Below are positions 11,807-46,781 of a stretch of DNA of 64,000 nt, one piece after another. The number at the start of each line of letters is the position of its first letter. Position 1 is the stretch's first letter. The position numbers and the translations under genes were made by a program. The notes beneath the pieces are model-generated. The model ran no database searches and was not told the DNA's origin. It saw only the letters and a program-made list of their open reading frames with translations. The DNA lies in IMG/VR virus record IMGVR_UViG_3300006217_000016, positions 6,503 through 70,502 of that record; one strand, given 5' to 3'. Origin of the DNA: a virus (taxonomy: Duplodnaviria > Heunggongvirae > Uroviricota > Caudoviricetes).

Positions 11807-12246
11807 TTACCCCTCTTTTCTCCATAGTTCTACCGTGTATTGCTGGCCAAGAATCTTCTCAATGATTCCGAACACAACACCCCAGTTGCCTCCACCAAGA
11901 CCACATCCAATCTTGTATGGCATTGCAATCGTCTCGCCAGCAGGAACGATCTGTTTTAATTGGAGTAGACACTTTTCAAAAGCTGCATAGTCTGTGTACT
12001 GCCTTCCGTTATAACCGTACTGGTCTTGAGAAAACAGATTGCAAACAACCTGGGGATCAATATTCTTGCCATCAACAGGTGTGCGCCCTCATCGCACCTG
12101 ACCTTATACCATTTGTAAACTGTGGGGAATTTTGTCCTTATCTGCTTTGCGACGCCGCTTCCCATTTTCCCTTGGCAGTTCACTTGGTGGCAAATATAAT
12201 TTGATTTTGTAGAGAACAGGTCTCCATCAATTATTTTGATAGACAT
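11807..12246 (-). pseudogene. Macro-domain (ADP-ribose binding/processing) gene interrupted by a -1 frameshift near 12078-12081
   Basis: The N-terminal part (GDLFSTKSNYICHQVNCQGKMGSGVAKQIR...YKWYKVRCDEGAH) is in one frame. The C-terminal macro core (VDGKNIDPQVVCNLFSQDQYGYNGRQYTDYAAFEKC...AMPYKIGCGLGGGNWGVVFGIIEKIL...) continues in the -1 frame and stops at 11807-11809, just before the nadE ATG. The 5' ATG overlaps the NAMPT stop (ATGA). Confidence 0.6.
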
Positions 12247-14186: not shown

Positions 14187-14987
14187 CTACTCTAATACAG
14201 CCACTTTCTCATGTTCACCACGATAGATGCTGTTTGTTGTAAATACTCGTGAAATCTGGCCATCTGTCAACACGGAGCCCTTGAAGATGGTGCTCTCACA
14301 ATGGGACACATACAGAAAAATTTCCTTTGCACCAGCTTCTTTCAGGGCAGCAGCAGTATGGGTAAACGTACCGCCACGGGAGCAAATGTCGTCCACAATA
14401 AGAACATTTCGACCGGCGACCTTCTCACTGTTGGCGAGTTCAAGCCCTTCAATTTTGCCAGTGCGCCAGTCACGGTGCTTGATACCGAACACATACTCCC
14501 GGCCCATCAGGTCGGAGTACCGCTTGGCAGCGCCCTCGTCCGGGTAGCACATCAGAACATCAGTATCGCCTGTATCAGCCATGACACGCTCAATAGCCAG
14601 ACGGATATTGTCCGCAGGCTCCTTCACGCAGATGCGGTCGATAAGCGCTGCCGCCACATTGGAATGTGGATCAAGCACTTCAACCTTACGAAAGTTGAGA
14701 GTGTTAATGAACTCGGCGAACCATTTCAGGGTGAACACCTCGTCGCCGCTCTTGACCCTGTCCATACGAGCATTGGGAATGTACGGCAAAACGAGCTCAA
14801 TATCCACACCCATCCGATTGTTCGCCCGAATGTGATGCACCAAATGCCACAGGAGCATACACTCGTGGTCGCCATCATACCGCCACTCAATACGGAACCA
14901 GACAGCGTCTTTGGTATCAAGGCGGAAGGATGTGGTCCCGTCTGGGAACTGCGTAAAGTTAACAGGGGTTCTGTTCACCAGAATCAT
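14187..14987 (-). CDS. Short ribose-phosphate pyrophosphokinase (Prs)-like enzyme; PRPP synthetase or ADP-ribose pyrophosphokinase (Adps-like)
   Basis: N-terminal Prs domain (FPDGTTSF...PYIPNARMDR). PRTase-type motif VLIVDDICSRGGT. 266 aa, shorter than canonical Prs. Confidence 0.7.
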   Translation of the reverse strand: MILVNRTPVNFTQFPDGTTSFRLDTKDAVWFRIEWRYDGDHECMLLWHLVHHIRANNRMGVDIELVLPYIPNARMDRVKSGDEVFTLKWFAEFINTLNFRKVEVLDPHSNVAAALIDRICVKEPADNIRLAIERVMADTGDTDVLMCYPDEGAAKRYSDLMGREYVFGIKHRDWRTGKIEGLELANSEKVAGRNVLIVDDICSRGGTFTHTAAALKEAGAKEIFLYVSHCESTIFKGSVLTDGQISRVFTTNSIYRGEHEKVAVLE

Positions 14988-18154: not shown

Positions 18155-18573
18155 TGGTGGAGCCGGCGGGAATCGAACCCGCGTCCGAAATTCCTACATG
18201 AGCAAGACCTTTTTACGCAATAGGTTTCCTTTTAGGTGGATGCCTTATGGCGGGGCACCAAGATGGAATCCAAATCTACCCCAGGGCGTACCAGTTAAGT
18301 ACACCTCCACCACCTTGTCTTTTTGAACAGATTACAAGGAAAACTGTTTTTCTGGCGTATCCTCGACCGCAGGTACTTACCCAGCCAGAGGTGTACCGTT
18401 TTGGAATCCTGCCGACAGTTAAGCGGCGACCCTCTCTGCCATGAAGGCGGCGAAAGCGGGATGGATCATAACAACACTCATATCATTGTCATTTCATTTT
18501 TTGTTTAGCCTTAAGGCGGTCTCTACCTGCGAATCTTACTCTCTCAGAACCCCGTCGAAACCTTTACGGCCCC
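18155..18573 (-). ncRNA. ssrA: tmRNA (SsrA), about 419 nt
   Basis: 5' end GGGGCCGUAAAGGUUUCGACGGGG and 3' end AUGUAGGAAUUUCGGACGCGGGUUCGAUUCCCGCCGGCUCCACCA are near-identical to bacterial tmRNA termini. An internal frame ends ...AFAAFMAERVAA-UAA (stop near 18419-18421), consistent with a degradation tag. Confidence 0.8.
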
Positions 18574-18946: not shown

Positions 18947-19621
18947 CTATACAAGCATTACCTTATTGTATAAGGCAATGAATTGATCATTCATAATTTT
19001 GTCGATATGGTAGTGTCCAAAATACCAACGTTTGAACTGAAGGTCAACCATAATACGCTCCAGATAGCTTACGAGCGGATCATTTTCATACCAATCTGCA
19101 ATCATGGTCTGAATGCTTCTTGGCGCACAGTGCGTTAACACATAATCAACAGACCATCCGTTGTTATCAAGCGCGTTGATCCCCCGTTCCATCTCTTCCA
19201 TAGATGGCATTTCGTCTTTCCACCAAGAAATATGTTCTGTACGATATTCTTTGTCATGAGATCTTGCACCGCCCATCACAAAGAACCTTTGCCCGTCGAT
19301 GGTCAGAACTTGTCCTCTCTCCAGATGGTAAATATTTGGCGCTATTTCTCGGACTTTACCACCGAACTTATCTTGAAGCGAAAATTTGCGGAGGATATCA
19401 AAATTCTCATGGTTCCCATCGATCCAGAGCGTGGTGAAGTTTTTACCCGCGAGCCATTTTTTCCACCATATCTCTCGTGTAGAACCGTCCCATATGAGCC
19501 CAAAATCCCCACAGACAATTAAATAATCCTTCTTAGTGAGCGATTTTTGCATCGGGAAGTTCTTGACAGACAACTTTTTTATGTCAATGTCCGCATGAGT
19601 ATCCCCTGTCACATAGATCAT
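18947..19621 (-). CDS. Calcineurin-like metallophosphoesterase
   Basis: Motifs VTGDTHAD, VCGDFG, GNHENF. Confidence 0.7.
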   Translation of the reverse strand: MIYVTGDTHADIDIKKLSVKNFPMQKSLTKKDYLIVCGDFGLIWDGSTREIWWKKWLAGKNFTTLWIDGNHENFDILRKFSLQDKFGGKVREIAPNIYHLERGQVLTIDGQRFFVMGGARSHDKEYRTEHISWWKDEMPSMEEMERGINALDNNGWSVDYVLTHCAPRSIQTMIADWYENDPLVSYLERIMVDLQFKRWYFGHYHIDKIMNDQFIALYNKVMLV

Positions 19622-19899
19622 TTTGAACCTCCAAGCATACGCATAAAGCTGTCTTCCTCAATGTCGATGGTTCCTTCTGGTTCATACAGCCTGATCTCAT
19701 TGCGTCCAACATACCATCCAAGTCCATGCTTGCAAGTATGTCCGCAGTCGTGTCCTCTTTGGATGGGCTTACCCCAATTAACACCAATATTATCTGATAC
19801 CCTGCATACTGTGCCAAGGTCGCCTATCTTGATATCAGGATTGCCGTCTGGATGATTACGAATAGCTTCGACACAATCTCCTACTTGAAATTCCATCAC
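19618..19899 (-). CDS. Small protein P2 of the C-terminal-tail family (GHDCxxxC...GWYV core; ends EEDSFMRMLGGSK)
   Basis: Paralogous to P3. Preceded on the sense strand by G8-TGA-CAAAGCGTG. Confidence 0.5.
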   Translation of the reverse strand: MMEFQVGDCVEAIRNHPDGNPDIKIGDLGTVCRVSDNIGVNWGKPIQRGHDCGHTCKHGLGWYVGRNEIRLYEPEGTIDIEEDSFMRMLGGSK

Positions 19900-20191
19900 G
19901 CTTTGTCACCCCCCCCGCACGGAGAGCGACACCAAGGAAGGAGTTCTCGTCGATATCTTCAACATCATCTTCGTACGGCCTGATATATCTCGTATGGACA
20001 TACCACCCGTGGCCGTACTCACAATTTCCGGAGCAATCATGTCCTTCACCTAATTCATTATCCCAATCGACACCAACATGATCTCCGTCAATATCGCACA
20101 CCGTTCCAGTATCGCCAACCATGATATAGTCACTCTCATCTGGGTTGTTGACGATAGCTTCTACTCGATCTCCAATTTGATACCTTGCCAT
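19856..20191 (-). CDS. Small protein P3 (paralog of P2). As sequenced, reads through a G8 tract into P2. A 7-G tract would end it at ...LRAGG-stop.
   Basis: Start placed at MARYQIGDRVEAIV (RBS AAAGGGTGG), homologous to the P2 N-terminus. An alternative upstream ATG at 20269 has no SD. Confidence 0.45.
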   Translation of the reverse strand: MARYQIGDRVEAIVNNPDESDYIMVGDTGTVCDIDGDHVGVDWDNELGEGHDCSGNCEYGHGWYVHTRYIRPYEDDVEDIDENSFLGVALRAGGVTKRDGISSRRLCRSYS

Positions 20192-20644
20192 GGATACCAC
20201 CCTTTCGTGAAAGTCTGGCGCAATACTTAAAACCTGTGTTTTATCCCATACATAATAGCCATACTGCATGGGATGGCAAAAGGACGCTGAACTCGGGATT
20301 TTCCACTACCTCTTATTTCAAATAAATACTCGGATCAGCGTCCTAAAGTCCTTGAAATACGCACTTTGTTGTTTGTGATCTGCATTATATCTCGGCAGGC
20401 TACGAGGAGGGCTCCCTGCATCCGGATACAGCTCCCGGTTACTGCTGTCATCTGGTTTGGAATGATGTCGTGTGTCTGTGGGTTCCTGACATCGGGTGCC
20501 GAACTCCTTGAGTCTCAGTGTGTTGGCGGGTTTGGTGACCTTTGTCCTGATGGCCCCTGTGCGGGTCGGCGCCTGAGCAGGTGGTCGTCGGCTGCCGCGG
20601 GATCTCTGATCGCACGCACTGCGGCCGCCAAGCCGTCATCCTCC

Positions 20645-20681
20645 ACCCAACCATTCGTTACTCTGATTTACAATACAGAGT
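20645..20681. repeat. Conserved hairpin repeat, copy B, with upstream block CCACCCAACCATTCGTT
   Basis: ACTCTG-ATTTACAATA-CAGAGT, about 40 nt after the stop at 20720. Confidence 0.65.
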
Positions 20682-21271: not shown

Positions 21272-21555
21272 ATCAACCACCTCTTTCATGCTTTGCATAA
21301 ACTTTGTAATCTACCATAAGGGATAGGAAGCTGGCCATGGTTTCCTCCAGAGAGGTGAGTCTGGGAATGTCATCTCGTGTGTTCCCGGCTGTCCGAACTG
21401 GTGTCAGGTTTCAGGAATTTTTGTGACGGAGTTCCTGCTGATTTCCTGGCGAAATGTGCAGTTCGGTAATAGTTCCGTTCTTCGTGATGTTGGTAAGGGT
21501 GTTTAGCATCTCCTGCTGCCGTCGCGGCCGGCAGCACTGCGCAGCCTGGCAGGCT

Positions 21556-21598
21556 CCCTTCTCCCAGCCATTCGTTACTCTGATTTACAATACAGAGT
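21556..21598. repeat. Conserved hairpin repeat, copy C, with upstream block CCCTTCTCCCAGCCATTCGTT
   Basis: ACTCTG-ATTTACAATA-CAGAGT, about 45 nt after the RT stop. Confidence 0.65.
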
Positions 21599-21643: not shown

Positions 21644-22783
21644 TTATGCGGCCAAATCCTCATGGATGGTACGCATTACGTCCGTTTGATATTTTTCGTT
21701 GTTGTACTTGATGACCTCGTCAACATACTTTTCTTCAACCATCCGGTAGTAGTTGATAAGGCCGCGCAAAACCTGAACATCGTGCAGTTCCCAGACAATT
21801 CCGTTCTTACGGTCGAGGATGTAGTTGCTGATCATTGCACGAAAACGCTGCTTGTTCTTGTGACCGATGGTGATCTCATTGTCCTTATTGAGCATGAGCC
21901 CGAGGTTCCAATTACTGCCGGCTCTGGAACCATACCTCGTCTTCTCATCCTTGATCTTGAACGGCGCATGGAAATCATCCAGCGTCTGATTGATGAAGTC
22001 GATGACCTTATTGTAGTCAAACTCTCTCCGGCTTGAAATTAGAGAGTCGTCTGCGTATCTGGTGTAAACGAACGACTGCCCGTTAAAATCACGCAGGGTA
22101 TTGTATACCTTGTGATCAAGGGGGATCATCATCAGATTTGTGAGCATCGGAGAAATCGGCGTGCCCTGCGGCAATCCGCCATGAAGAAAACAGAGGTTGA
22201 GTGCCTTGTCCAGTGCTGCTCTGCCCCGTTCTGACTTGACAATCTCGCTGAACGGGAAAATCAAAGAGAGCGAATACCGAAGGAATACCAGCGTTGTGTC
22301 CCCAAAAAAGTTCGAGAAATCCGTCTTTAAGAACCAATGACTGTCATTCCTCTGGTGACGTTTGATGGCGTCAATGGTGGAACGATTCTTAACATAGGCA
22401 AAGGCGGAGGTGTGGTACAGCGCAAACATCTTGGTCTCAAACAAAGTCTTCAGATTCCGAAGCGCCGTCATCAGTTCTGGCACAGGGGCATTGATCTCAC
22501 GCAGGCCGCCGGACTTCTTCGGAATATGGAATGTGGTATAGAGGGCTTCTCTCGGAACGGCATACAGCTCGGCATTTTGTTCGCAAAAACTCTCCAGAGC
22601 GGAGACCATACCGGCGAAATCGAACCGATCCAGAAACTGTGGCTTGAGTCGCTGTGCGAAATGCGTTCTGGTATTGGTGCTGTTTGAAGTTATCATAGAC
22701 TGCATGTTGACCTCACCAGATATGATTTCCTCAAATGATATCTGATGGTATGCAGGCGATTGCATGACGGTTATGTATGGCAT
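21644..22783 (-). CDS. Reverse transcriptase, retron/group-II-like (QGxxxSP and YADD motifs), 379 aa
   Basis: Motifs IPKKSGGLREINAP (RT1), FLKTDFSNFF (RT3), LPQGTPISP (RT4), YTRYADD (RT5). RBS AGGAGG upstream. Confidence 0.85.
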   Translation of the reverse strand: MPYITVMQSPAYHQISFEEIISGEVNMQSMITSNSTNTRTHFAQRLKPQFLDRFDFAGMVSALESFCEQNAELYAVPREALYTTFHIPKKSGGLREINAPVPELMTALRNLKTLFETKMFALYHTSAFAYVKNRSTIDAIKRHQRNDSHWFLKTDFSNFFGDTTLVFLRYSLSLIFPFSEIVKSERGRAALDKALNLCFLHGGLPQGTPISPMLTNLMMIPLDHKVYNTLRDFNGQSFVYTRYADDSLISSRREFDYNKVIDFINQTLDDFHAPFKIKDEKTRYGSRAGSNWNLGLMLNKDNEITIGHKNKQRFRAMISNYILDRKNGIVWELHDVQVLRGLINYYRMVEEKYVDEVIKYNNEKYQTDVMRTIHEDLAA

Positions 22784-23079
22784 ATTTTTAATACCTCCTG
22801 ATGTCTGTATTCTGGTATACAGTAGGTTGAGGAATTCAGGATGCGATGGGTACTTGAGAGCTGGGACTGAGTGCGGGCTCGGTGGGTAATCTGGTGAGTG
22901 ATTTGCGGCGGTCCGATGGTTCTTGGGGTCGCCATCTGTCTTCCTGTTTGCTGTCCGTCACCTTTCTGGTCGAGATGTCAAGAGTTCTTTGCGTATTTGG
23001 AGCAGTAGAAAACAGTTTATTTATTACCTCTTGACCTCGGTGGCGGGCAGGCGCCTTCAGATTCCGCCTCCGGGCGGGG

Positions 23080-23124
23080 TGTCCCTTCTCCCAGCCATGC
23101 GCAACTCTGATTTACAATACAGAG
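23080..23124. repeat. Conserved hairpin repeat, copy D, with upstream block CCCTTCTCCCAGCCATGCGCA
   Basis: CTCTG-ATTTACAATA-CAGAG in the RT upstream spacer. Confidence 0.65.
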
Positions 23125-23227
23125 CACCCTCAGAATAACTCTGAAAGTAATGCAATACAGACTATATGGAAGGGGCAGCGGCAACCAAAGCCACTGCCCC
23201 TATAGAACTATCGTAAAACGTGATGCC

Positions 23228-26706: not shown

Positions 26707-27108
26707 TTAGATGACGGTGATGTTAGCCATGACCTCGGCGTTCTCAGCCTCGACCTCGGCCAGGGCATCGTCGATGCCGGCCTCCACCTTGTTCAGGCGA
26801 ACCACGGCCTTGCCGACCAGCTTGGCAGCATAGTCGATCACGTTCTCAGTCCCAGCGGGGACGGGAATCGTGATGGTGGCCAGCTTCGCCTCGTCGTGGG
26901 TCTCGGAGGCGAAAGTCGCGCCGTTCTGGTTGATGCTGCCGGCAGCAGCGGCGGTCTCCACGCGGAAGATTTCCTCCTTCTTACCGTTCTCATCGGTCTC
27001 GATGAGACGAAGAGCCTTCGGGCGGTACTCCTCCAGCGTCTTCAGAGCCTTGAGGCTCTTGCCGCTGGTGACGATGATCGCGTCACCAGCAATGGTGATC
27101 TTTGCCAT
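26707..27108 (-). CDS. Hypothetical protein (start at MAKITIAGD)
   Basis: The upstream extension of the ORF would translate the poly-G tract and terminator. RBS AAAGGATG. Confidence 0.45.
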   Translation of the reverse strand: MAKITIAGDAIIVTSGKSLKALKTLEEYRPKALRLIETDENGKKEEIFRVETAAAAGSINQNGATFASETHDEAKLATITIPVPAGTENVIDYAAKLVGKAVVRLNKVEAGIDDALAEVEAENAEVMANITVI

Positions 27109-27221
27109 ACTGATACATCCTTTCTGTTCGGGCTTTGCCCTTAATATGTACCCCGTTTGCTCACCCCCCCCCATCGGGGGCTCCCCAGCCTGAACCACGA
27201 GGAGGTGGGGCCGATCAGGCC

Positions 27222-28027: not shown

Positions 28028-28384
28028 TTACCTCCCTTGATTACCCCCCCCCGCAGAGATAATTGCTTCAAATCCGGCATCGGAGATTTCAAAGTCGGGC
28101 TCCACGCCGTAAAATGTGCATTTGATATAATTTCTGTATGCGCTGTCTGAGTAACATGTTCTGCTCCCATATTTCATTGTTCCTCGCGGTTCAATGCGAT
28201 AACAGGTTTCTTCTCTGTTCTCATGCCAATGAGTTTCTCCAACTGGCTCATCACCATACCATTTTATATCGTTTTCTTCTAAAAACGAAAACAGTTCATC
28301 TACCAAGTCTTTGTCAGGACAATGGATGATGACACCGTTGAATAGCATTGAAATCTCAAGCGGAGTGTCTGGCCAATCTACCAT
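28028..28384 (-). CDS. Small protein P6 (ends ISDAGFEAIISAGGGNQGR; G9 tract in the C-terminal codons)
   Basis: Paralog of P5. Start is 6 nt after G8-TGA of P7. Confidence 0.5.
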   Translation of the reverse strand: MVDWPDTPLEISMLFNGVIIHCPDKDLVDELFSFLEENDIKWYGDEPVGETHWHENREETCYRIEPRGTMKYGSRTCYSDSAYRNYIKCTFYGVEPDFEISDAGFEAIISAGGGNQGR

Positions 28385-28390
28385 TGAGAC

Positions 28391-28636
28391 TCACCCCCCC
28401 CGAGTTAGAATATTGAGCAGAGACTCGAAGTCGGTGTAATCGTAAGGATTGATGGGATGACCATTATACATAGCAAAGAGCACTTTTGCATCGTTGGCTG
28501 GAACAAAATTGCATTCACCATTCCAATCGTCAACGACGCCCTGAAGGTACTTAGCCTGAATCAAGTACGGATCGCCATCTGCGTTTTCAGTGACGACAAC
28601 CGTATCGCTACCAAGCATAACAGTTTTCAGATCCAC
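28391..28636 (-). CDS. Small protein P7 (ends DFESLLNILTRGG-stop; RGG encoded by CGG GGG GGG TGA)
   Basis: GTG start with GGAGGTGA 6 nt upstream. Confidence 0.5.
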   Translation of the reverse strand: MDLKTVMLGSDTVVVTENADGDPYLIQAKYLQGVVDDWNGECNFVPANDAKVLFAMYNGHPINPYDYTDFESLLNILTRGG

Positions 28637-34267: not shown

Positions 34268-34353
34268 CTCTTTAAGGGTAACACCCCTCAAACCATTGCA
34301 AATCAAGGACTTTTTGAGCGTTTTGCCACCTCGATGGTGGCAAGCGATTGCCC
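34268..34353. repeat. Repeat R1 (TACAGAGATTCTCTTTAAGGGTAACACCCCTCAAA ... CCACCTCGATGGTGGCAAG)
   Basis: About 80% identical to R2 at 42106-42200. Confidence 0.55.
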
Positions 34354-34488
34354 ACTCTGCGTTTCTGAACCGGGCTTGTGACCGGCTATGGCCGCATTAG
34401 GCAGGCGGCCCGCTACTTTGCAGGCCGCCTATCGGAAAGGAAAGAACCGCTGGATGTAACCTACGGCATTGGGAAGCGCCTATGGCGC

Positions 34489-35715: not shown

Positions 35716-35762
35716 CTAAAACCTCCCTCTCGTTGCGGGTTTCTCACTCTGCATTTCTCATG

Positions 35763-35800
35763 CGGGCTTGTGACCGCCAATGGCTGCATTAAGAAGCCGT
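35763..35800. repeat. About 40-nt repeat GGGCTTGTGACCGCCAATGGCTGCATTAAGAAGCCGTCC (second copy at 34369-34410)
   Basis: Both copies precede a GC hairpin. Confidence 0.45.
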
Positions 35801-37989: not shown

Positions 37990-38126
37990 ACAAAACCTCC
38001 TCCTGGCCTTCAGGCCGTAAGTCAAAACCTTTTGCCCTCTCTGCGTTTACACGGACTTGAGACCGTTAGCGGACAACGTCCGCCAGTCGCATTAGGCGCG
38101 GAGGTAAAACCTCCGCTGTGCCGCAA

Positions 38127-38990
38127 TCAGGCGGCGGCAGGAGCCTTCTCGGCGGTCATCGGCTCAGGAGTGGAAACCTCAGCCGCCTTGGACTTCTTGG
38201 CGCGGGTCTTGGAACCCGTTTTGGCCTTGGGCGCAGAACCCTTCTCATCCTTGGGCTCGGTGGCGGCGGCACCGTTGCGCTTGTAATCCACGCCGTAGAC
38301 ACCCTTGGTAACGATGCGGTAGAAAACGTCGCCCATCAAGGACATCAGGATGGTGTGCTTGGAACACTGAACCCGCAGGGCGGCGCGGTTGTTGCGCTTG
38401 GTGTAACAGGACATCACATAGCCCAGGTCGTGGCCGTTGACCTTGCCCTCACCGGGGGAAAGCATGTCCAAAACCCGTTGCATATGCTTGACGACCTGGG
38501 TGTCGCTGGTGGGTGTCTTGCCCAACTGGATTTCAGACGCCAACTTGTCCATGTTGTAGGAGTCATCAATCCGCTTCATCTCAGCGGCGGTAACTCCGAT
38601 GGTCTCGGCGACGCGGAGCGTCAGCCGCTTGTTGAGAGCCTGAAGCTCATAGAACCAGCCCAGGTCGAACCCCTTGACCTCGCAGAACTTCTTAAGGTCG
38701 ATTTGAACGGTGCGCTCGGCCTTCTCAACGCCGGTCATGCGGCCCTCGTCGGTGGTCTTCTTGTGGCCGATGGTGGTGAAGTGGTGAAGCTCGATGGCCT
38801 GGTGGGTGTCCAGAAGCCCGGCGAACACCTCGGACTCGCGCAAGGAGCGATACTCCTTCTCGATGTTGACGAGCTCAGCCAGCTTGCCCTCAACGTCGGC
38901 GTTCGTTCCCTTGGCGCAAGCCTGGTTGACCTCGGCGATCTTCGCCTCGTAATCCTTCAGCAGCTCTGCCTTACGATTTTTCGTTGCCAT
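38127..38990 (-). CDS. Hypothetical protein with Lys/Ala/Pro-rich histone-H1-like C-terminal tail (possible DNA-binding)
   Basis: 287 aa. Tail ...KGSAPKAKTGSKTRAKKSKAAEV... Confidence 0.5.
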   Translation of the reverse strand: MATKNRKAELLKDYEAKIAEVNQACAKGTNADVEGKLAELVNIEKEYRSLRESEVFAGLLDTHQAIELHHFTTIGHKKTTDEGRMTGVEKAERTVQIDLKKFCEVKGFDLGWFYELQALNKRLTLRVAETIGVTAAEMKRIDDSYNMDKLASEIQLGKTPTSDTQVVKHMQRVLDMLSPGEGKVNGHDLGYVMSCYTKRNNRAALRVQCSKHTILMSLMGDVFYRIVTKGVYGVDYKRNGAAATEPKDEKGSAPKAKTGSKTRAKKSKAAEVSTPEPMTAEKAPAAA

Positions 38991-39754
38991 AACGTAACCT
39001 CCTAATAAGATTTTCTATGGGCAAGCCCATAATGAAGCCCTGGAACGAAGCCGCTCCAGGGCTCGATATAGGTTTGCACTCCCTCTGGTGACTTCTGCTC
39101 TGCGCTCAAGTCCACGGGACGTAAAGACGCCCGCACCACTTGTCGCAGTATTCACCGAAGTGCGCGGCATTTCAACCGCTCACCATTGGGAGAGAAAAAT
39201 TCACGTTATCATGCTATCAAATCCACTCCGGCCAACTATTCCGCTCGCTGTACTAACTCCCTTAGAGCCTTCCGGCGGCGATGTGCCACGCAACGCGCAA
39301 CCCTCCTTGAGAACTGCGACGCCTTTTAAGCATAGTCACAAAGCTGCTTTATAGCTGAGCCATCCTGAACCGTCAAGCACTTATCCACCCACACGTTTCC
39401 ATCACGTTTGCAGTTGGAGCGGAACCAACTGATTGCCGAGAACTCAATACTGCCCGCGTTCAGTACCCGCGCACTGGGAGCCTAACTCTCCCAATTTTTG
39501 GCTGGCCTTCTCTTGGGACGGTTGGAGCCGTCACATGTTGCAAGAGTACACTTCTTCTGCTGGCAGAAGTACCCCTTGAGCGAGCGTGTGATGCCCTCAA
39601 GGTGGCGCGTGGTATACCCCTCTGCATTTGCACAGGCTTGGGACTGTCCAGACAAGTGTAACTTGCCCGGGCTGCATTGGTATACCGCCGGGGGTGGGCG
39701 CGTGGTGTGGCGCGTGGGGTGTGGGGCGGGGTGTGCTTTTGTTCCCCCGTATAT

Positions 39755-39782
39755 ATGCACACGGCTGTCACCCCCCCCCCCC
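39755..39782. repeat. Direct repeat DR-L (ATGCACACGGCTGTCAC + C12) flanking the sigma-like gene
   Basis: Matches DR-R at 40759-40783. Confidence 0.55.
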
Positions 39783-39791
39783 GGAAAAGGG

Positions 39792-39828
39792 CATAAAAAG
39801 AGCGGGGCGGCCCGTGTAGCCGCCCCGC
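39792..39828 (-). terminator. Rho-independent terminator of the sigma-like gene
   Basis: GC-rich hairpin GCGGGGCGGCUACACGGGCCGCCCCGC then UCUUUUUAU on the minus strand, directly after the stop at 39845. Confidence 0.6.
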
Positions 39829-39844
39829 CGTTATGGGGGTGTGT

Positions 39845-40627
39845 TTACTTCTGGTTCTTGTTCATGCCGCCGCGCTTCCGCATGGTTGCCAGCGTTTCCG
39901 CGATATCGTCCGGGGTGTACCCAGCCGCCGCGAAAATTGCGCCGTCCTTGTCCAGTTCAACCGCCTTTTTCAGTACCCAAAAGTAGGCTTTTGCAAGGTT
40001 TTTGTAAACATTCTGGCGCGCTTTTCCTGTCTTTTCGGCGATATCCGCCGCGCTCATTTCCTGTTGATAGGACAGGGTGAACACTTCGACTTGAGCCGGG
40101 GAAAGCGTGGGGGCGGTTGCGTCAATGGCGCGGGCAATCAGACGGTCAAGGGCGGGGCATGTGGCGCGGGGGTAACGGGGCTGGACGTTGCACGCAACCC
40201 AGCCGGGGGTATACTCTTTCTCACTGTTGCGGTTTTGCTTCTGCTGATATGCGCGGATAGCGGAGAAAGCCGCGCTTTTCACCTGGTACATGTCCGCGCC
40301 GGGGTTGTCCGTCAGTGTGGCGATAATGGCAACGGTGGCTATGCTGGTGTAGTCCTCTTTATCCCACTGGCTGCGGTTGATGGGGTTCATCACGGCGTAG
40401 TTGTTCCGCCTCTCCCAGTTCTCGACGCTGGCAAGGGTGAATTTCGCCATATCTTGAATGGCTTCGGGGTTCTCCATGTCTACAAGGGGGTAAATGCGGA
40501 CGGTGGCGCGGGGGTACTTCTCATTAGCCGCCGTTACGGCGTCCTGAAGGGTTCCAGCGGTGAGAATTTCAAGGGCTTTTGCTGTCTTGTTTTCGCGGTC
40601 GATTGCACAAATTTGATACTTTTTCAT
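39845..40627 (-). CDS. Divergent sigma-70-family region-4-containing protein (putative phage sigma or transcription factor)
   Basis: C-terminal LSPAQVEVFTLSYQQEMSAADIAEKTGKARQNVYKNLAKA resembles a sigma region 4 HTH. RBS AGGGAG upstream. Confidence 0.45.
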   Translation of the reverse strand: MKKYQICAIDRENKTAKALEILTAGTLQDAVTAANEKYPRATVRIYPLVDMENPEAIQDMAKFTLASVENWERRNNYAVMNPINRSQWDKEDYTSIATVAIIATLTDNPGADMYQVKSAAFSAIRAYQQKQNRNSEKEYTPGWVACNVQPRYPRATCPALDRLIARAIDATAPTLSPAQVEVFTLSYQQEMSAADIAEKTGKARQNVYKNLAKAYFWVLKKAVELDKDGAIFAAAGYTPDDIAETLATMRKRGGMNKNQK

Positions 40628-40699
40628 GGTTTTACTCCCTGTTTCACCGATAGATTAGCGGGGACGGTTGCCGCCGCGCCCCGTTGCGGTGATATGGAT

Positions 40700-40728
40700 A
40701 ATATACACCCCCGATTAAAGATTGTCAA
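40700..40728 (-). promoter_or_regulatory. Near-consensus sigma70 promoter for the sigma-like gene (TTGACA-N17-TATATT)
   Basis: Read on the minus strand: TTGACAATCTTTAATCGGGGGTGTATATT. Confidence 0.6.
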
Positions 40729-40758
40729 CACTTTTTTTTGAGGGGGTGTCAACAATGC

Positions 40759-40783
40759 TATGCACACGCTTGTCACCCCCCCC
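40759..40783. repeat. Direct repeat DR-R (TATGCACACGCTTGTCAC + C8)
   Basis: Matches DR-L. Lies within the divergent promoter region together with TGTCAAC/TGTCACC iteron-like motifs. Confidence 0.55.
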
Positions 40784-41110
40784 GGCGCGGTGTGTGTGCC
40801 GCCGGCCCGGCGTGGTGTCTATGTCACCTTTTCGCGCTATGTCCCATAGAGGGGGCTTGTTTTCCATATTTTGACGAAACGCCCCCGCAGCCCAGGCGCC
40901 CAGTTGGCTCATCTCCCATGGGTCACCAAAAAACTCACTCCGACCACAACACCTTGCGCCACAACACTCACAGCCGTTTTATCATCGGGGAGAATGTGTT
41001 GCTCACGCCATTCTTTATAAAGGATCGTCACAGATGATAAAACGGCGTCTCGCCAAAGTAGCTTGAAACGTGACTTTAAGGAGACAGATAATTTTCTCCG
41101 AAATTTGTGC

Positions 41111-41138
41111 TTGACATCTGGGGCGATTATGCTATAAT
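41111..41138 (+). promoter_or_regulatory. Consensus sigma70 promoter for the recombinase arm (TTGACA-N16-TATAAT)
   Basis: TTGACATCTGGGGCGATTATGCTATAAT, about 50 nt upstream of the int ATG, with RBS AGAGGGAGG. Confidence 0.7.
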
Positions 41139-41187
41139 AGTATCATAGTCAACAATCTTTTTTGAAGTATAGAGGGAGGCACCGTTC

Positions 41188-42021
41188 ATGGGCAAGGTTA
41201 TCAATGTAGACTTCACAGCGCGGAGTGCAGACGCAAACGCAGACGCAGTCATCGACGTTAAGGCAGTAGCTCAGTCCCGGAGGTTGCTCCAGGCTGGCCT
41301 GATCGCGCCGGCTGTCGAGGATACCAGTTACGAAGTAGCGGGGGAACATGCAAGCGAACCTATCAAGAACGTAGATGACATCTACGCCGTGTCTGAGTGG
41401 TTCATCACCAGAGGCCGGTATCGCGACAACATGCTCTTCATCGTTGGCATCAACTTCGGCCTGCGAGTCAGCGACCTGCTGACGCTGCGGTTCTCCCACC
41501 TGATCGACGAACAGTTCAGGTTCAAGACCACGTTCCCCATTCTGGAGAAGAAGACCCGGAACACCAGGAAGGTGAAGCGCAACCGCTACATCACCATCAA
41601 CGATGCCGTGGTGGATGCAGTCACGCTCTATCTGGAGAACACACCAGGCGTCAAGCTCAGCGACTTCATGTTCCGTGGTGAGAGCAACCGGTGCGGCAAG
41701 GACAACAACAAGGCCATGAGCCGGAAGTCTGCCGACCGGATCTTGAAGGAAGTCGGTGAGGCGCTCGGCCTCGGCATCCACATTGCTACCCACACGCTGC
41801 GCAAGACGTTCGCCTATCACCAGATGGTAATGAGCAACAACGACCCGCGCAAGCTCCTGCTTCTGCAGAAGATGTTCGGACACAGCACGTCCGCCCAGAC
41901 GCTCGACTACATCGGTATCACTGGTGAGGAGATCGAGGAGGCGTACATGCAGCTCAACCTGGGCGGGCGCCGCTCGCTCCGGCTGATGGACAGCACCATC
42001 GTGGAGCAGCCGGCAGGCTGA
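41188..42021 (+). CDS. Tyrosine recombinase/integrase (phage integrase family)
   Basis: Box I GLRVSDLLTLRFSHL. Box II HTLRKTFA...FGHSTSAQTLDYIGIT with the catalytic Tyr. Confidence 0.8.
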   Translation: MGKVINVDFTARSADANADAVIDVKAVAQSRRLLQAGLIAPAVEDTSYEVAGEHASEPIKNVDDIYAVSEWFITRGRYRDNMLFIVGINFGLRVSDLLTLRFSHLIDEQFRFKTTFPILEKKTRNTRKVKRNRYITINDAVVDAVTLYLENTPGVKLSDFMFRGESNRCGKDNNKAMSRKSADRILKEVGEALGLGIHIATHTLRKTFAYHQMVMSNNDPRKLLLLQKMFGHSTSAQTLDYIGITGEEIEEAYMQLNLGGRRSLRLMDSTIVEQPAG

Positions 42022-42105
42022 TGCGCCACCTGCACCTTGACAACAGAATAGGATACTACAGTCCTTAGCTCCCTCGTTTGAAGGCTCTATAGCTACAAGT
42101 GTTCC

Positions 42106-42200
42106 TACAGAGATTCTCTTTAAGGGTTACCCCCTGAAATAATCCATTTCAAGGGCCGAAATTTTCGTTTTACCACCTGGGTGGTGGTAAACGGTGGTAA
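42106..42200. repeat. Repeat R2 (TACAGAGATTCTCTTTAAGGGTTACCCCCTGAAA ... CCACCTGGGTGGTGGTAAACGGTGGTAAAGG)
   Basis: Second copy of R1. Lies immediately upstream of the gene at 42215. Confidence 0.55.
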
Positions 42201-42214
42201 AGGAGGTTTTGCTT

Positions 42215-42595
42215 ATGAGTGTGAACTGGAAGATGGACGAGACAGCGCTGGGCCGCGAGACGTTCGCCGAGGACTTCGACGACTACGGGCGCGGGGAAGA
42301 CCACAAGGTTTCTATCGGCGACGAGGTCGAAGCCACAGACAAATACGGGCGTACCCACGCCGGGGTGGTGGTGGGGATCATCCGCGACATCAACCGCGAG
42401 CCGGTATGTTATAAGGTATGGAATGAGGAGCTGGACGACTTCGATTTCATCCAGGCGTCAGACAACATCCTGTGTGAGCCGTGCGGCTCGTCGCAGTGGT
42501 CGCTGGAGCGCATCGGGTATGTGCAGCATGGGAACGATGCAGACCGGTGCTGGTTCTACCTGAACAAGCGGACGGGGGATGTGATCTATTGGTAA
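42215..42595 (+). CDS. Hypothetical protein
   Basis: ATG with AGGAGG 8 nt upstream. The track ORF starts earlier at an alternative codon. Confidence 0.5.
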   Translation: MSVNWKMDETALGRETFAEDFDDYGRGEDHKVSIGDEVEATDKYGRTHAGVVVGIIRDINREPVCYKVWNEELDDFDFIQASDNILCEPCGSSQWSLERIGYVQHGNDADRCWFYLNKRTGDVIYW

Positions 42596-42612
42596 AGGTA
42601 TGTGACGCCATC

Positions 42613-43815
42613 ATGGGAACCGGCAAGAGTTCCGCAGCCATTACATACATGAACGACCACCCCGAGAAGAAGTTCATCTACATCACACCATACCTTGAAG
42701 AAGCGACACGCATCGCCACATCATGTTCCCGGCTCCACTTCTTCGAGCCCAAGAAGAAAACGGAGTTCAATGGGTCAAAGACCCTACATACGATTGACCT
42801 CGTGAAGCGAGGGGAGAACATCGCTACCACCCATCAGGCGTTCCGGTTCTATCCACAGGAGCTTCTGGAACTGGTGAGTGGGCAGGGCTACACGTTAATC
42901 ATCGACGAGAACGTAGACGTGCTGGAAACGCTGGACGAAGACCCGGCAGATATCCAGATGGCTATCGACGCCGGGTACATTTCCGAAATCAGACCGGACG
43001 TTTTCCACCTCGTCAAAGACGTATACGATGGGAAGACGCACCGGGATCTGTTCCGAGTCCTGCGGACACGCGACCTGATTCGGATGACTGGCGAGTCCAA
43101 GGAGTCTTTCTTCTACTGGCAGCTCCCGCCTGAACTCATCACCTCGTTCGACGAGGTATACATCCTGACGTACCTGTTTGAGGGACAGAGCCTGCACCAC
43201 TTCCTCGAAATGTACGACATCCCATACCAGTTCGTTGGGGTGGAGAAAACGGGCGACAGCGAGTTTAGGTTCAGCAGCTCGACAGAATACGTGCCGGACT
43301 ACGTCCATAACATCCACGACATGATTGAGATCGTGGACGACCCCAAGCTGAATGATGTCGGGGAGGACGACTTCTCCCTGTCCATGAGCTGGTTCGACAA
43401 GGAGAGTTCTGACACATCCAGGTTGAAGAACAACCTTTATAATTTCTTCCGCTATATGTGCGGGGCAGAGGCCGCAGACAGAATGTGGTCTACATATCGT
43501 GACGCGAAGTCGAAGATCCAAGGCAAGGGATACACCAACGGGTTTATTCCGTTCAACAAGAAAGCGACGAATGAATATAGGAATCGCACCGCCGTTGCGT
43601 ACTGCGTCAACCTATATATGAACGTCGGACAAAAACTGTTCTACCAAAACAACGGCGTGGAGGTAGACGAGGACGCATACGCCTTATCCATTATGGTACA
43701 GTGGATTTGGCGAAGCGCAATCCGTGATGGGCAGAAGATCGTACTGTATGTTCCAAGCAAACGGATGCGCGGTCTGCTTACCAACTGGATGGAGGAGGTG
43801 AGCAGACGTGGATAA
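42613..43815 (+). CDS. P-loop NTPase (Walker A GTGKSS, Walker B LIIDEN), function unknown
   Basis: Start at MGTGKSS with AAAGG upstream. The longer ORF overlaps the previous gene. Confidence 0.55.
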   Translation: MGTGKSSAAITYMNDHPEKKFIYITPYLEEATRIATSCSRLHFFEPKKKTEFNGSKTLHTIDLVKRGENIATTHQAFRFYPQELLELVSGQGYTLIIDENVDVLETLDEDPADIQMAIDAGYISEIRPDVFHLVKDVYDGKTHRDLFRVLRTRDLIRMTGESKESFFYWQLPPELITSFDEVYILTYLFEGQSLHHFLEMYDIPYQFVGVEKTGDSEFRFSSSTEYVPDYVHNIHDMIEIVDDPKLNDVGEDDFSLSMSWFDKESSDTSRLKNNLYNFFRYMCGAEAADRMWSTYRDAKSKIQGKGYTNGFIPFNKKATNEYRNRTAVAYCVNLYMNVGQKLFYQNNGVEVDEDAYALSIMVQWIWRSAIRDGQKIVLYVPSKRMRGLLTNWMEEVSRRG

Positions 43816-43981
43816 GTGTGACAGATGTTTATGGGCAGGGTGCTGTCGTACAGCCATGGATGGATGCCCGGACTTTACAACGGTGGACGAGAACGAATAC
43901 ATCGAGGAGTTCCACAGGGTTCGGTCAGAGGAACTGCTTCCGTATTGGATGATATATATCGGACAATACAGCGACGACTAA
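43808..43981 (+). CDS. Small Cys-rich protein (57 aa; alternative frame to track ORF 43825..44019)
   Basis: GTG start 10 nt after GGAGGAGG. Protein-like sequence ...ENEYIEEFHRVRSEELLPYWMIYIGQYSDD. The two overlapping frames cannot both be real. Confidence 0.25.
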   Translation: MDKCDRCLWAGCCRTAMDGCPDFTTVDENEYIEEFHRVRSEELLPYWMIYIGQYSDD

Positions 43982-44015
43982 TTTTTTTAGCGTATCAACA
44001 ATTTTATTTGAGGCG

Positions 44016-46781
44016 GTGAGCATTATTTCCAAACAACAGTCTTGCCAGAAGTTTATCCTCAAACTTCATAGCGCACGCTTACGCAAGGCAAGGTGGAATT
44101 TGACGCTCCCTATCTCCGAGGCGCGGAGAAACGATGAAGTCATTTCCCTCAGCGACAGCCAGATGCTGCGCTTCATCGATAAGCTGAATGGCATCGAGAA
44201 CGCAGACGCGATTGCGAAAGAGATTAAGAGCGAAATAAAAATGCTCAGAAAACAAATAAATTCTCTACAAAATCGCAAGAAAATTAAAAGTTTATACGAG
44301 AAATTAGATGAAATACAATACAAACCAGATTACATGTGTTTGATCATCGACAAAGAGAAAGACTATTGGAGAGCTTGCAAGGGCTTCAAGATCAACGGGG
44401 TGAAGTACGTTAGGCTGCTGGGTACCAACGGCGGCATCAAGAACTCGACCATCGTGTTCGTCAGCGATAGGATGGCGCCTGAGCTGCGCCGGCGTATTGA
44501 CAACGGGAGGGACAAGAGCAAGGAGCTGGTACCGGCCAAGCTGGAAGCGTATCAGGCGCTGGCCTGCAGCGGCTCCATCCCGGTGTCCTACCCCAACGGC
44601 ATCGCCGTGGTCGAGGACTGCGTGACGCACTTCAAGTCCGACGTCATCAACATCGAGGACTCGGACGGTGAACCGAAGATGTGGTTCCAGGCCGGGGCGG
44701 ATGTGGAGCTCGACGAGTCGGACGGGTACGGCATCATGCTCCCGTCTCTGGCGAGAAGGTGGTCGGAAGAACTTCAGCTCGACTACATGGTAAGCGGAGT
44801 CAACACCCGTCTGTCCTTTGAGAAGGGGATGGTCTTCACCTTCGACTTCCTGGAGTTTGCCGACGAGGTGGCCGGCACCCGCATCATCAAAGATGCGTGG
44901 GGTAACGATGTGGATCTCTCAAACGTGGAGCTGATACTCACCACGTCCATGGTCAAGCTGTGGGACAGCTACGCGAGCTGTGAGGACTACCTGCGCAACT
45001 GCAAGGAGAACGGGTATACCTTCGGCATCACAAAGTCCTGCCCAAAGGTTTTGGAGAATGAGCGCAGTACCAACTACCAGTTCCTCCAGGTGTACGACCT
45101 GGACGACGCACAGGTCGAGCAGCTCATCCAGCCGACCATGCAGGAGATCCACGACATCCTGGCGCTCGACTGGAGGAAGGCCGCTCTGTTCCTCAAGGGC
45201 GTAGGGCTGAACGAGGAGAACATCGACTTCATCGAGTCGGACTTCGCGAAGGCCATCATGGTGGAGCCCAGGATGATGGACGACCCATTCGTCACGAAGA
45301 AGATCTACGGTATGATAAAGAAGCGCATCATCGACGCGAAGATCGGCGTCATCAAAGTGCGCGGCAACTACTCCATCATCTCCGGCGACCCATACGCGCT
45401 GTGTCAGAGCATCTTCGGTCTGGAAGTCACCGGGCTGCTGAAGGCCGGCGAGATCTACAACAAGTATTGGTTAGACCACGGTGTAGACAACGTGGTGTGC
45501 TTCCGCGCTCCTATGACCTGTGCCAACAACGTAATCAAGATGCACGTCAACGGAAGTGAGGAGGCACAGCACTGGTACAGATATATGGTGTCATGTTCGC
45601 TGCTGAATGCCTGGGACACCACGGCGGCTGCGCTGAACGGCGCGGACAAAGACGGTGATCTGATTTTCACAACGGACAATGAGATACTGGTGTCGTGCCA
45701 CAGGCAGCTCCCCGCGCTCATGTGTGCCCAGAGGAAAGCGACGAAGTGCGTGCCGACGCAGGAGGACATCATCAACTCGAACATCGCCAGTTTCGGCGAT
45801 GACATCGGGAAGATCACGAACCACATCACATCTATGTTCGATGTGATATCCATGTATGAGAAGGGCAGCCCGGAGTACGAGGCGCTCGACTACCGTATCA
45901 AGTGTGGGCAGAAGTTCCAGCAGGACTCCATCGACCGGGCCAAGGGCATCATCTCAAAGCCAATGCCAAAGAGCTGGTATGACAGGGCGTATGTCAGGAA
46001 CGCATATGGCGACGATGAAGAGAAGGTACAGTTCGCCATGAAGATCGTTGCGGACAAGAAGCCATACTTCATGCGGTACATCTACCCGACGCTGATGCGC
46101 CAGTACACTACATACGTTTCCAACACCAACAAGAAGGCGCTTCGCGAGTTCCGCCTGACCATTGACGAGCTGATAGAGAAGGAGCGCGCAGGCGGTCTGT
46201 CTGACGAAGAACGGGAGTTCCTACACTACTATCGTATCAAGACGCCGGTGGGAGTACATGACTGTGTGATGAACAGAATATGCCGGCGCTTCGAGGACGA
46301 GTTCGATGGGTACATCACCCGCCACAACTCCGACGTCGAGTTCGACTATACGATTATGAAGAGCGGCGTGGAGTATACACAGACCCAGTACAACGCAATC
46401 CTTCGGTTGTACGAAGCGTACAACAAGCGGATGCAGGACTATATGCAGTACGCAAAGAAGGAGCGCCTGGATGAAGACGAGAACATGAACCACAGGTACG
46501 TTATGGTTCAGGACTTCCGCAGAGAGTGCCAGATTGTTTGCTCCAATAAAAGTCAGTTGTGTGACATACTGTTGGATATATGTTATCAGAAAGAAGGGTC
46601 AAAGCAGTTTGTCTGGGACATGGCAAGCGATGAAATCATCGACGCTTTGGTCAGGAACAACGGCGGCTATATTTCCTTCCCTGCCCGCGACGACAACGGA
46701 GACGTTTTGTTTGGCGGCGAACGGTTCTCGTTCGCAAGAAAGCAGATTGGAGGGGAAGCAGATGAATATAGTGCTGAATGA
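44016..46781 (+). CDS. Large protein with a beta-prime-like double-psi beta-barrel catalytic motif: candidate YonO-like single-subunit two-barrel RNA polymerase
   Basis: VVCFRAPMTCANNVIKMHV ... ALNGADKDGDLIFTT parallels RNAP beta-prime NRAPTLHRL ... AYNADFDGDQMAVH. 921 aa. GTG start. Confidence 0.5.
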   Translation: MSIISKQQSCQKFILKLHSARLRKARWNLTLPISEARRNDEVISLSDSQMLRFIDKLNGIENADAIAKEIKSEIKMLRKQINSLQNRKKIKSLYEKLDEIQYKPDYMCLIIDKEKDYWRACKGFKINGVKYVRLLGTNGGIKNSTIVFVSDRMAPELRRRIDNGRDKSKELVPAKLEAYQALACSGSIPVSYPNGIAVVEDCVTHFKSDVINIEDSDGEPKMWFQAGADVELDESDGYGIMLPSLARRWSEELQLDYMVSGVNTRLSFEKGMVFTFDFLEFADEVAGTRIIKDAWGNDVDLSNVELILTTSMVKLWDSYASCEDYLRNCKENGYTFGITKSCPKVLENERSTNYQFLQVYDLDDAQVEQLIQPTMQEIHDILALDWRKAALFLKGVGLNEENIDFIESDFAKAIMVEPRMMDDPFVTKKIYGMIKKRIIDAKIGVIKVRGNYSIISGDPYALCQSIFGLEVTGLLKAGEIYNKYWLDHGVDNVVCFRAPMTCANNVIKMHVNGSEEAQHWYRYMVSCSLLNAWDTTAAALNGADKDGDLIFTTDNEILVSCHRQLPALMCAQRKATKCVPTQEDIINSNIASFGDDIGKITNHITSMFDVISMYEKGSPEYEALDYRIKCGQKFQQDSIDRAKGIISKPMPKSWYDRAYVRNAYGDDEEKVQFAMKIVADKKPYFMRYIYPTLMRQYTTYVSNTNKKALREFRLTIDELIEKERAGGLSDEEREFLHYYRIKTPVGVHDCVMNRICRRFEDEFDGYITRHNSDVEFDYTIMKSGVEYTQTQYNAILRLYEAYNKRMQDYMQYAKKERLDEDENMNHRYVMVQDFRRECQIVCSNKSQLCDILLDICYQKEGSKQFVWDMASDEIIDALVRNNGGYISFPARDDNGDVLFGGERFSFARKQIGGEADEYSAE

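Follow-up and report, generated by a model that had tools for sequence, protein, structure and literature searches.

Direct repeats around a sigma-like regulator gene of uncultivated phages as its probable cognate promoters or DNA sites

What purpose is served by the repeated sequences that stand on either side of a sigma-like gene in an uncultivated phage? The gene lies in a 64,000-nucleotide (nt) stretch of the IMG/VR virus record IMGVR_UViG_3300006217_000016 (positions 6,503 to 70,502), here called the window, which looks like part of a large phage genome. A reading made earlier from the sequence alone (the sequence-only reading) proposed that the gene and its repeats may form an excisable or invertible cassette, and that the intergenic region beside them, next to a tyrosine recombinase gene, may be an early control region, an origin or attP. 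After comparing the locus with its relatives, we consider it probable that the repeats are cognate promoters, or at least cognate DNA sites, of the regulator they flank. Most likely, the upstream copy is autoregulatory, and the downstream copy serves the leftward arm of genes as a promoter or as an array of promoters.

The two copies of the direct repeat (39754-39778 and 40759-40783) are identical at 23 of 25 bases and bracket the sigma-like open reading frame (ORF), which bears out the earlier report of poly-C direct repeats on both sides of the gene. Runs of 12 C (39771-39782) and 8 C (40776-40783) adjoin the two copies. A 16-mer core, TGCACACGNNTGTCAC, occurs exactly twice in the 64 kb, both times in the repeat, and looser matches are at chance level. 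On the gene's (minus) strand, the repeat reads polyG-TGACA-N8-GCATATATAC-GGGG or, at finer resolution, polyG-TGACA-(G/A)(C/G)CGTGTG-CATA, and the downstream copy goes on with TATATAC-GGGGG. The features that define the module, in the direction of the gene, are as follows (aa, amino acids).

40755..40783, minus strand: upstream motif copy, G8-TGACA-AGCGTGTG-CATAGCAT, of repeat family D2; about 49 nt upstream of a sigma70-type -35 hexamer; proposed autoregulatory promoter
39845..40627, minus strand: sigma-like regulator gene, 260 aa; Pfam Sigma70_r4_2, 36 bits (cutoff 25.7)
39791..39829, minus strand: intrinsic terminator of the sigma-like gene, a 12-pair stem (39801-39829) plus T-tract; an equivalent hairpin is present in relatives
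39744..39782, minus strand: downstream motif copy, G12-TGACA-GCCGTGTG-CATATATAC-GGGGG, directly after the terminator; proposed leftward-arm promoter
39684..39743, minus strand: C/A-rich leader without T on the sense strand, from motif to ribozyme candidate; 39684-39750 has 1 T in 67 nt
39614..39683, minus strand: type-P1 twister ribozyme candidate; Rfam RF03160, 57.4 bits (gathering 67.2), E = 3.6e-12, alignment 1-68

Two short ORFs that start from the GTG of GTGACA (40624-40776, 50 aa, and 39460-39771, 103 aa) were rejected as genes because they cross the promoter and the ribozyme.

Homologues were collected for the sigma-like protein (53 clusters) and for the recombinase (70 IMG/VR loci and 42 contigs of metagenome-assembled genomes (MAGs)), together about 190 loci. 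For 54 nonredundant loci, the region upstream of the regulator was compared with the 500 nt after the gene, with a repeat score of at least 15. A direct repeat links the two sides in 41 of these loci (median score, 20) and an inverted repeat in one; shuffled sequence gave none. The architecture is conserved. A lineage-specific motif of 20 to 30 nt is found once upstream, at the same place as the upstream copy in the window, and again in one to six direct tandem copies just after the terminator and before the twister; tandem amplification affects the downstream side only. Close relatives of the window keep both copies and carry two to three downstream tandem copies (three in L002 and L007, with a period of about 94-106 nt). 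Loci of the L025 type have two to six exact downstream copies of the motif CAGGGTACACCCCTTGCGGTTAAGGGTGCAGGGCAAG with a period of 57-59 nt before the twister, and a single copy upstream. In L009, L011 and L012 (sigma-like proteins 46% identical), both positions are occupied by GGTGACATACA...GCATA or GCGTATAT, without the G-run. The distance between the upstream copy and the -35 hexamer of the sigma70-type promoter varies from 42 to 50 nt, and such an unphased distance speaks more for an independent tandem promoter than for an activator site held in phase.

Contigs of many assemblies, including near-complete genomes of 95-116 kb, end inside the arrays, because short-read assembly cannot resolve exact tandem repeats; some assemblies read through. 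The possibility that the array marks a pac site or the physical ends of the genome was considered and rejected, given that the ends fall in exact tandem repeats and that some assemblies cross them.

Evidence on what reads the motif comes from its variation. Across lineages, the 5' hexamer varies with the recognition helix of the regulator's helix-turn-helix (HTH) domain: TQRAIAKT accompanies GGTACA, QAVQN(A/T)L accompanies GTTGC(C/A), D(P/V)(N/S)NV accompanies GGTGAC, and SHQAIAKT accompanies GTTGAC. In one pair of loci, L061 and L089, the recombinases are 99% identical and the RNA polymerase N-termini are 100% identical. The two regulators are near-identical over most of their length, and by far the largest difference between them is the recognition helix (GVTQRAIAKTVEQVQKKA versus GIPQSSVCRCMYQVRNKA). 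Both motif copies shift together between these loci, from GGGTACAC-CCCTTGCGG to GGGTGTAGAC-CCCTTGCGG, that is, in the 5' part only. At least nine helix/hexamer pairings exist beyond this pair, and window-type relatives behave likewise, with GGTGACC, G8-ACAA and G9-TACAAC each found with other helices. By this covariation, the motif belongs with the HTH of the regulator and not with the recombinase or the polymerase. By contrast with the hexamer, the 3' part of the motif is common to lineages with differing hexamers and consists of a TA-rich element and then GGG(C)AA(G/C), which is what a melting and start region would be expected to look like.

Additional copies of the motif also occur in a promoter-type context. 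At least 13 contigs of the L025 type have a third copy after a terminator hairpin, in the same orientation and with 54-55 nt between it and the ATG that starts a conserved 155-aa gene. No homologue of this 155-aa gene is present in the window. One candidate for a third site was found there.

27133..27172, minus strand: candidate third promoter, G9-TGAGC-N10-TACATATTAA-GGGCAAAG, preceded by a terminator hairpin and followed about 25 nt later by the ATG at 27105

The G-run of this site is about 55 nt from the ATG, with a short leader and a Shine-Dalgarno sequence between them, and the site looks like a divergent third member of the same promoter class. It is a better relative of the motif than positions 19903-19916, which the sequence-only reading had listed as a third copy and which we assign to a different kind of element.

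19906..19916, minus strand: G8-TGA site, 6 nt before the start codon of ORF 19618-19899 (minus strand); Shine-Dalgarno-like, a different element

Positions 19904-19916 have G8-TGACAA(A)GCGTG in common with the upstream copy, without the GCATA part. An exact scan of IMG/VR with the window-type motif gave no matches. As a separate observation, in L139 (8761-11420) and 12 further IMG/VR loci the third copy lies between a 669-aa gene, which in L025-type genomes ends in ...SYFCFVNSNGSANGTYANFSYGVAFGFCV, and the 155-aa gene, which is followed by a 394-aa gene; this layout is reminiscent of a diversity-generating retroelement.

The intergenic region upstream of the sigma-like gene holds the remaining control signals.

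40700..40728, minus strand: sigma70-type promoter of the sigma-like gene, TTGACA-17-TATATT, 11/12 consensus positions; a second TTGACA lies at 40747-40752
40818..40849, either strand: operator-like pair CTATGTCAC / CTATGTCCCATAG, with sites about 20 nt apart
40973-40991 / 41028-41046, either strand: 19-nt inverted repeat I2 with a 36-nt spacer, between the divergent promoters
41111..41138, plus strand: consensus sigma70-type promoter of the rightward arm, TTGACA-16-TG-TATAAT, 12/12 with TG
41188..42021, plus strand: tyrosine recombinase, 277 aa; PF00589, phrog_216; catalytically complete; head of the right arm

The two back-to-back near-consensus promoters described previously are confirmed, with 12/12 matches on the plus strand and 11/12 on the minus strand, as are the gene's own terminator (39801-39829) and the adjacent tyrosine recombinase (PF00589). 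A promoter of the form TTGACA-17/18-TATAnT occupies the position equivalent to that of the sigma-like gene's promoter in L002, L005, L006, L008, L009 and L025. At the place of the operator-like pair, relatives retain a pair of CTATG-N3-CATAG-like sites with a distance of about 20 nt, although the flanks diverge. In the 19-nt inverted repeat, five pairs stay paired through changes on both arms across five relatives; possible roles are those of a protein-binding dyad, of a hairpin RNA or of the real recombinase or origin site. Divergent promoters, conserved operator-like palindromes and the coincidence of a coding-strand switch with a minimum of the GC skew support the suggestion that this is an early control region. 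The claimed richness in TGTCAAC/TGTCACC iterons holds only locally: four occur in 40723-40828, and the window-wide count is 20, compared with 18.65 expected. Two of the four are -35 hexamers (TTGACA) read in reverse, one is in the repeat, and one, the TGTCACC at 40822, is explained by the operator-like palindrome. The T9/A9 runs also claimed for this region proved to be T8 (40732-40739), A6 and T6.

On the other side of the gene, the downstream motif copy leads into the leader, which includes a 63-nt sense-strand stretch without any T, and then into the twister candidate. The twister alignment takes in GUCCCAAGCC and GAGGG, and the candidate has the same position in L002, L007 and L009. Beyond it lie two further features.

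39068..39202, minus strand: RAGATH-4 RNA candidate; RF03153, 73.3 bits (gathering 104.4), E = 7e-16; in the long leader of the 287-aa gene
38127..38990, minus strand: 287-aa gene, the first protein gene of the leftward arm past the motif; Lys-rich tail; without family match; homologues at the same position in relatives

The RAGATH-4 candidate is likewise kept in L002, L007 and L009. Four type-P1 twister candidates are present on the minus strand (39614-39683, 38033-38098, 35741-35795 and 34349-34403), with scores of 47-57 bits and E values of 2e-7 to 3e-10 in the whole-window scan; all four score below the gathering threshold, are conserved in relatives and lie between leftward-arm genes, and the 287-aa gene sits between two of them. 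At Rfam gathering thresholds, nothing is found in the region; the ribozyme and RAGATH matches appear only at E-value thresholds. The 840-nt noncoding stretch between the terminator and the 287-aa gene has no sigma70-type promoter scoring above 9/12. In the arrays of L002, L007, L025, L125, L136, L148 and L176, the spacers between copies are nearly T-free, and all T's are inside the motif.

In the regulator itself, an N-terminal alpha/beta domain and a helical middle domain are joined by a disordered linker (residues 133-155) to a C-terminal HTH of sigma region 4, the reader of -35 elements in the sigma70 family, including factors of the extracytoplasmic function (ECF) type. Region 2 is not visible by sequence; fold searches favour two-domain sigma factors, and the protein resembles sigma region 4, and perhaps region 2, not winged-helix Rep proteins. 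PHROGs has no match for the sigma-like protein or the 287-aa protein. Distant lineages carry another regulator family at the same locus, with proteins of 315-380 aa that align with the window protein only over the C-terminal HTH. Regulators of the L025 type score as GerE/LuxR as well as Sigma70_r4.

These features suggest the following scheme. Host RNA polymerase with the housekeeping sigma factor would fire at the two divergent promoters, so that the first transcripts would cover the arm with the recombinase and a YonO-like polymerase rightward and the sigma-like protein leftward. The C-terminal region-4 HTH would then read the 5' half of the motif (G-run and TGACA), with the TA-rich part and the following GGGG acting as the melting and start region. 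Positive feedback on the regulator gene would come from the upstream copy (40755-40783), and transcription of the leftward arm would start at the post-terminator copy (39744-39782; two to six tandem copies in relatives). Finally, the twister at 39614-39683 would cut the T-free leader from the transcript, which would yield the same mature 5' end whichever copy of the array fires.

Promoter function is the best reading of the motif in light of the context of the third copy, the lack of any other left-arm promoter and the ribozyme directly downstream. Several points weigh against it. The spacing from the hexamer to the TA-rich element is 10 nt in the window and 14 nt in L009 and L012, which have a 4-nt insertion, and window-type motifs have no conserved element at 16-17 nt; this misfits the fixed 16-17 nt between -35 and -10 elements of sigma70-family promoters. 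The 64 kb of the window hold only two full copies and one looser candidate. The helix swap on which the argument turns was seen in the other regulator family, which hhalign aligns with the window protein over the HTH only (probability 40%), and hence the two families cannot be treated as one. Iteron origins, too, classically have this arrangement, in which a gene carries one binding site for its product at the promoter and a tandem array of such sites alongside. Moreover, we infer that RNA is initiated at the motif, and presumably either the host core enzyme or the YonO-like polymerase serves it and the ribozyme cleaves. With the spacing misfit and region 2 unseen by sequence, the protein may be an activator or a partner of the YonO-type polymerase. 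A classical activator or antiterminator would bind the motif and either recruit holoenzyme or allow read-through of the terminator. That only the C-terminal HTH is recognisable by sequence, that L025-type proteins resemble GerE/LuxR too, that the upstream copy lies about -60 to -85 from the sigma70-type start, where activators usually bind, and that so short a distance from hexamer to TA-rich element is unusual for a sigma factor are all compatible with this. However, neither the downstream copies nor those at the third site are followed by a sigma70-type promoter, the unphased distance noted above does not suit an activator, the conserved TA-rich element and GGG(C)AA(G/C) after a variable hexamer look like a shared melting and start region, and the fold searches point to sigma factors; we therefore regard an activator or antiterminator as unlikely. 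We also give little credence to the sigma-like protein being a promoter-specificity subunit of the phage's YonO-type polymerase, not of the host enzyme: by analogy with phage SPbeta, the structural arm would be the expected target, and a scan of the window found no motif copy on the structural-gene arm.

The layout itself invites comparison with iteron origins. In RK2 (oriV/TrfA), F (RepE) and P1 (oriR), an initiator gene is accompanied by iterons, with one site near its promoter. By this account, the HTH protein would be an initiator, the downstream copies iterons and the upstream copy an autoregulatory operator. As in those replicons, one copy is at the promoter, one to six direct copies are beside the gene and site specificity covaries with the protein's HTH; in addition, cumulative GC skew is lowest at 38-40 kb. 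Unlike in RK2, P1 and F, the period is 57-110 nt and varies with lineage instead of being about 22 nt, the region (39600-39900) is 61-65% G+C without an AT-rich unwinding stretch, DnaA-like boxes are not clustered, and the protein is sigma-like and not a winged-helix Rep protein. The copies always point toward downstream genes, a ribozyme follows them, and the third copy of L025-type genomes is far from the array in a terminator-motif-leader-ATG context. The skew minimum coincides with the coding-strand switch, which by itself can produce such a minimum and so weakens the case for an origin. Thus, the origin suggested by the sequence-only reading finds support in the layout of tandem repeats and promoter copy and not in the period, base composition or DnaA boxes, and we consider it quite improbable. 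A role as recombination sites is far harder to sustain. Direct repeats of 25 nt do bracket a gene beside a catalytically complete tyrosine recombinase, the downstream copy number differs among close relatives, and many assemblies break at both repeat positions. Nevertheless, direct repeats cannot invert, and the preponderance of direct over inverted orientation in relatives speaks against an invertible cassette; no dyad-symmetric core is evident; the motifs differ completely where recombinases are 99% identical (L061/L089) and track the regulator helix; the breaks lie in exact tandem repeats beyond short-read resolution; and a distant third copy has a promoter context. For an excisable cassette, no relative among the approximately 190 loci has the recombinase, a single hybrid repeat and the next gene with the regulator cleanly missing; in loci without the regulator, gene order is altogether different. 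Nothing points to attP at the repeats, and the genome-collection matches in a search for attP were all MAG contigs, the longer ones arranged differently upstream of the recombinase. We judge recombination sites to be a very remote explanation of the repeats.

If the repeats are cognate promoters, the module follows a known regulatory design. The plasmid pBS32 of Bacillus subtilis encodes the sigma factor SigN (ZpdN), which is expressed from SigA promoters and from a SigN-dependent promoter that gives positive feedback (PMC6751061). Like SigN and autoregulated ECF-type sigma factors, the window protein would be a mobile-element sigma-like factor that uses a housekeeping promoter and then its own promoter, with a regulon on the element (PMC6751061). 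Both elements of such a circuit, the sigma70-type promoter at 40700-40728 and the motif at 40755-40783, are present in the window and kept in relatives, their activity being predicted. Unlike with SigN, the motif also lies directly after the gene's terminator, often in two to six tandem copies, and feeds a ribozyme leader; the hexamer-to-TA spacing of 10-14 nt differs, too, and sigma activity is predicted here. What appears new is a regulator embedded between its own promoter-like motifs, the tendency of the downstream motif to form tandem arrays and a leader that would be trimmed by a ribozyme.

Like SPbeta, the window phage has a YonO-type single-chain RNA polymerase (PF05183). In SPbeta, one YonO-dependent late start, upstream of an unannotated noncoding RNA, drives a long operon, and the promoter sequence and any specificity factor are still unknown (PMC5467207). 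Unlike in SPbeta, the motif in the window heads an accessory arm (tRNAs, transfer-messenger RNA (tmRNA) and metabolic genes), whereas structural genes are on the other strand past the polymerase gene. The helix swap between L061 and L089 indicates that the regulator, not the polymerase, sets motif specificity.

Phage promoters of another kind offer a further comparison. Those used by the single-subunit polymerases of T7, T3 and SP6 are continuous conserved blocks, about 25-30 nt long, in which a part that gives specificity stands upstream of a TATA-like part and a GGG start; they occur in several copies per genome. The motif resembles these blocks by design only; the window polymerase belongs to the two-barrel YonO type, and specificity goes with a separate HTH protein. 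The four twister-P1 candidates and one RAGATH-4 candidate, all intergenic in the leftward arm and on one strand, resemble other loci of these families (RF03160 and RF03153), except that all score below gathering thresholds here and that the first twister is directly behind a promoter-like array. To our knowledge, this placement is not part of the Rfam family descriptions, and it suggests a role in leader trimming.

Should the repeats prove to be cognate promoters, an early-to-middle switch would be defined for a large clade of uncultivated phages, including its regulator, motif and controlled arm, and the natural helix/hexamer pairs would be usable as orthogonal transcription parts. Twisters would gain a concrete job, namely trimming the heterogeneous leaders that arise from a promoter array. 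The tandem array explains why assemblies of these phages break here, and the false lead of a mobile sigma cassette, for which evidence is lacking, is removed. If the protein were instead a subunit of the YonO-type enzyme, the compact promoter (hexamer, TA element, GGG start and T-free transcript) would reflect the geometry of a smaller polymerase, the minimal two-barrel enzyme would have a modular, swappable specificity helix, and the question of whether SPbeta YonO needs a factor for its promoters would be answered.

The runs of C that first drew attention to the repeats can be accounted for separately. Many lineages carry GGG or GGGGG before the hexamer, and the window lineage has expanded this to 6-12 G. 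Among close, near-identical relatives, the run varies from G6 to G12, although homopolymer sequencing error is possible. With regard to a phase-variable homopolymer switch, the polymorphic tract (with the same caveat) is upstream of the -35-like hexamer and not between elements, and a change in run length should thus not alter promoter spacing. The C-runs are probably a hypermutable yet tolerated flank, expanded from a GGG flank. All six C-runs of at least 8 nt in the window are minus-strand G-runs followed by TGA or TAA. Three of the six, 19906-19916, 28041-28052 and 28391-28401 (minus strand), fall at gene junctions, where the next start codon follows 6-13 nt later, and look like an extended Shine-Dalgarno sequence (GGGGGTGA versus GGAGGTGA).

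Two unusual relatives deserve mention. L001/L010 (IMGVR_UViG_3300006149_000155) does not differ from the window in the recombinase or in the first 225 sigma-like codons and then continues with unrelated sequence; its upstream motif copy has G7-TAACA, and about 50 nt near window positions 40895-40950 are missing. The contig is a probable assembly chimera or rearranged variant. L187 (Logan SRR22600574, 12.6 kb) encodes a 56% identical sigma-like homologue in another context, without the recombinase and with a DDE transposase gene nearby, and has a G9-TACAACCATGTGCATATATACGGGG motif about 200 nt downstream of that homologue.

The locus separates two gene arms. Left of about 40.6 kb, nearly all long ORFs are on the minus strand, and right of 41.2 kb the plus strand takes over; the cumulative GC skew is lowest at this switch. 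After the recombinase, the right arm carries a YonV-like gene, a 921-aa YonO-like RNA polymerase, an exonuclease, a terminase, a portal and structural genes. The 921-aa protein matches PF05183 and has homologues among the YonO-type single-chain RNA polymerases, namely those in Clostridium phage c-st, Enterocloster phages and SPbeta-like Bacillus phages. Enterocloster phage PMBT24, which has the nearest cultured polymerase homologue, was examined as a counterpart and set aside; its gene order differs, and it has no equivalent module. Searches of GenBank phages gave no nucleotide match to 38100-46000. The clade consists of uncultivated phages of about 100-130 kb, whose contigs fall mainly into bins of Oscillospiraceae and other Clostridia from gut and rumen. 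The recombinase is 59-69% identical to those of distant lineages, near the value for the RNA polymerase N-terminus (63-69%), whereas the YonV-like neighbour is 37-42% identical and the regulator is unalignable. Such conservation is unusual for a phage integrase and hints at a possible core function.

In the left arm, the sigma-like gene is followed by the 287-aa gene, tRNAs, the tmRNA, a reverse transcriptase, enzymes of nicotinamide adenine dinucleotide (NAD) salvage and radical-SAM proteins. The tmRNA is at 18155-18573 (minus strand; 96 bits). Thirteen tRNA genes lie between 17598 and 49185, 12 of them on the minus strand, with one cluster at 17.6-18.9 kb around the tmRNA. The NAD-salvage genes (12246-13772 and 14187-14987, minus strand) encode a nicotinamide phosphoribosyltransferase and a ribose-phosphate pyrophosphokinase, and the arm also has radical-SAM and Fe-S oxidoreductase genes. 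The reverse transcriptase gene (21644-22783) is preceded by a 440-nt noncoding region. Together with a 192-aa gene, it is flanked by copies of a 58-nt element, of which there are three (20624-20681, 21541-21598 and 23068-23125; 67-83% identical), each ending in the hairpin ACTCTG-N10-CAGAGT.

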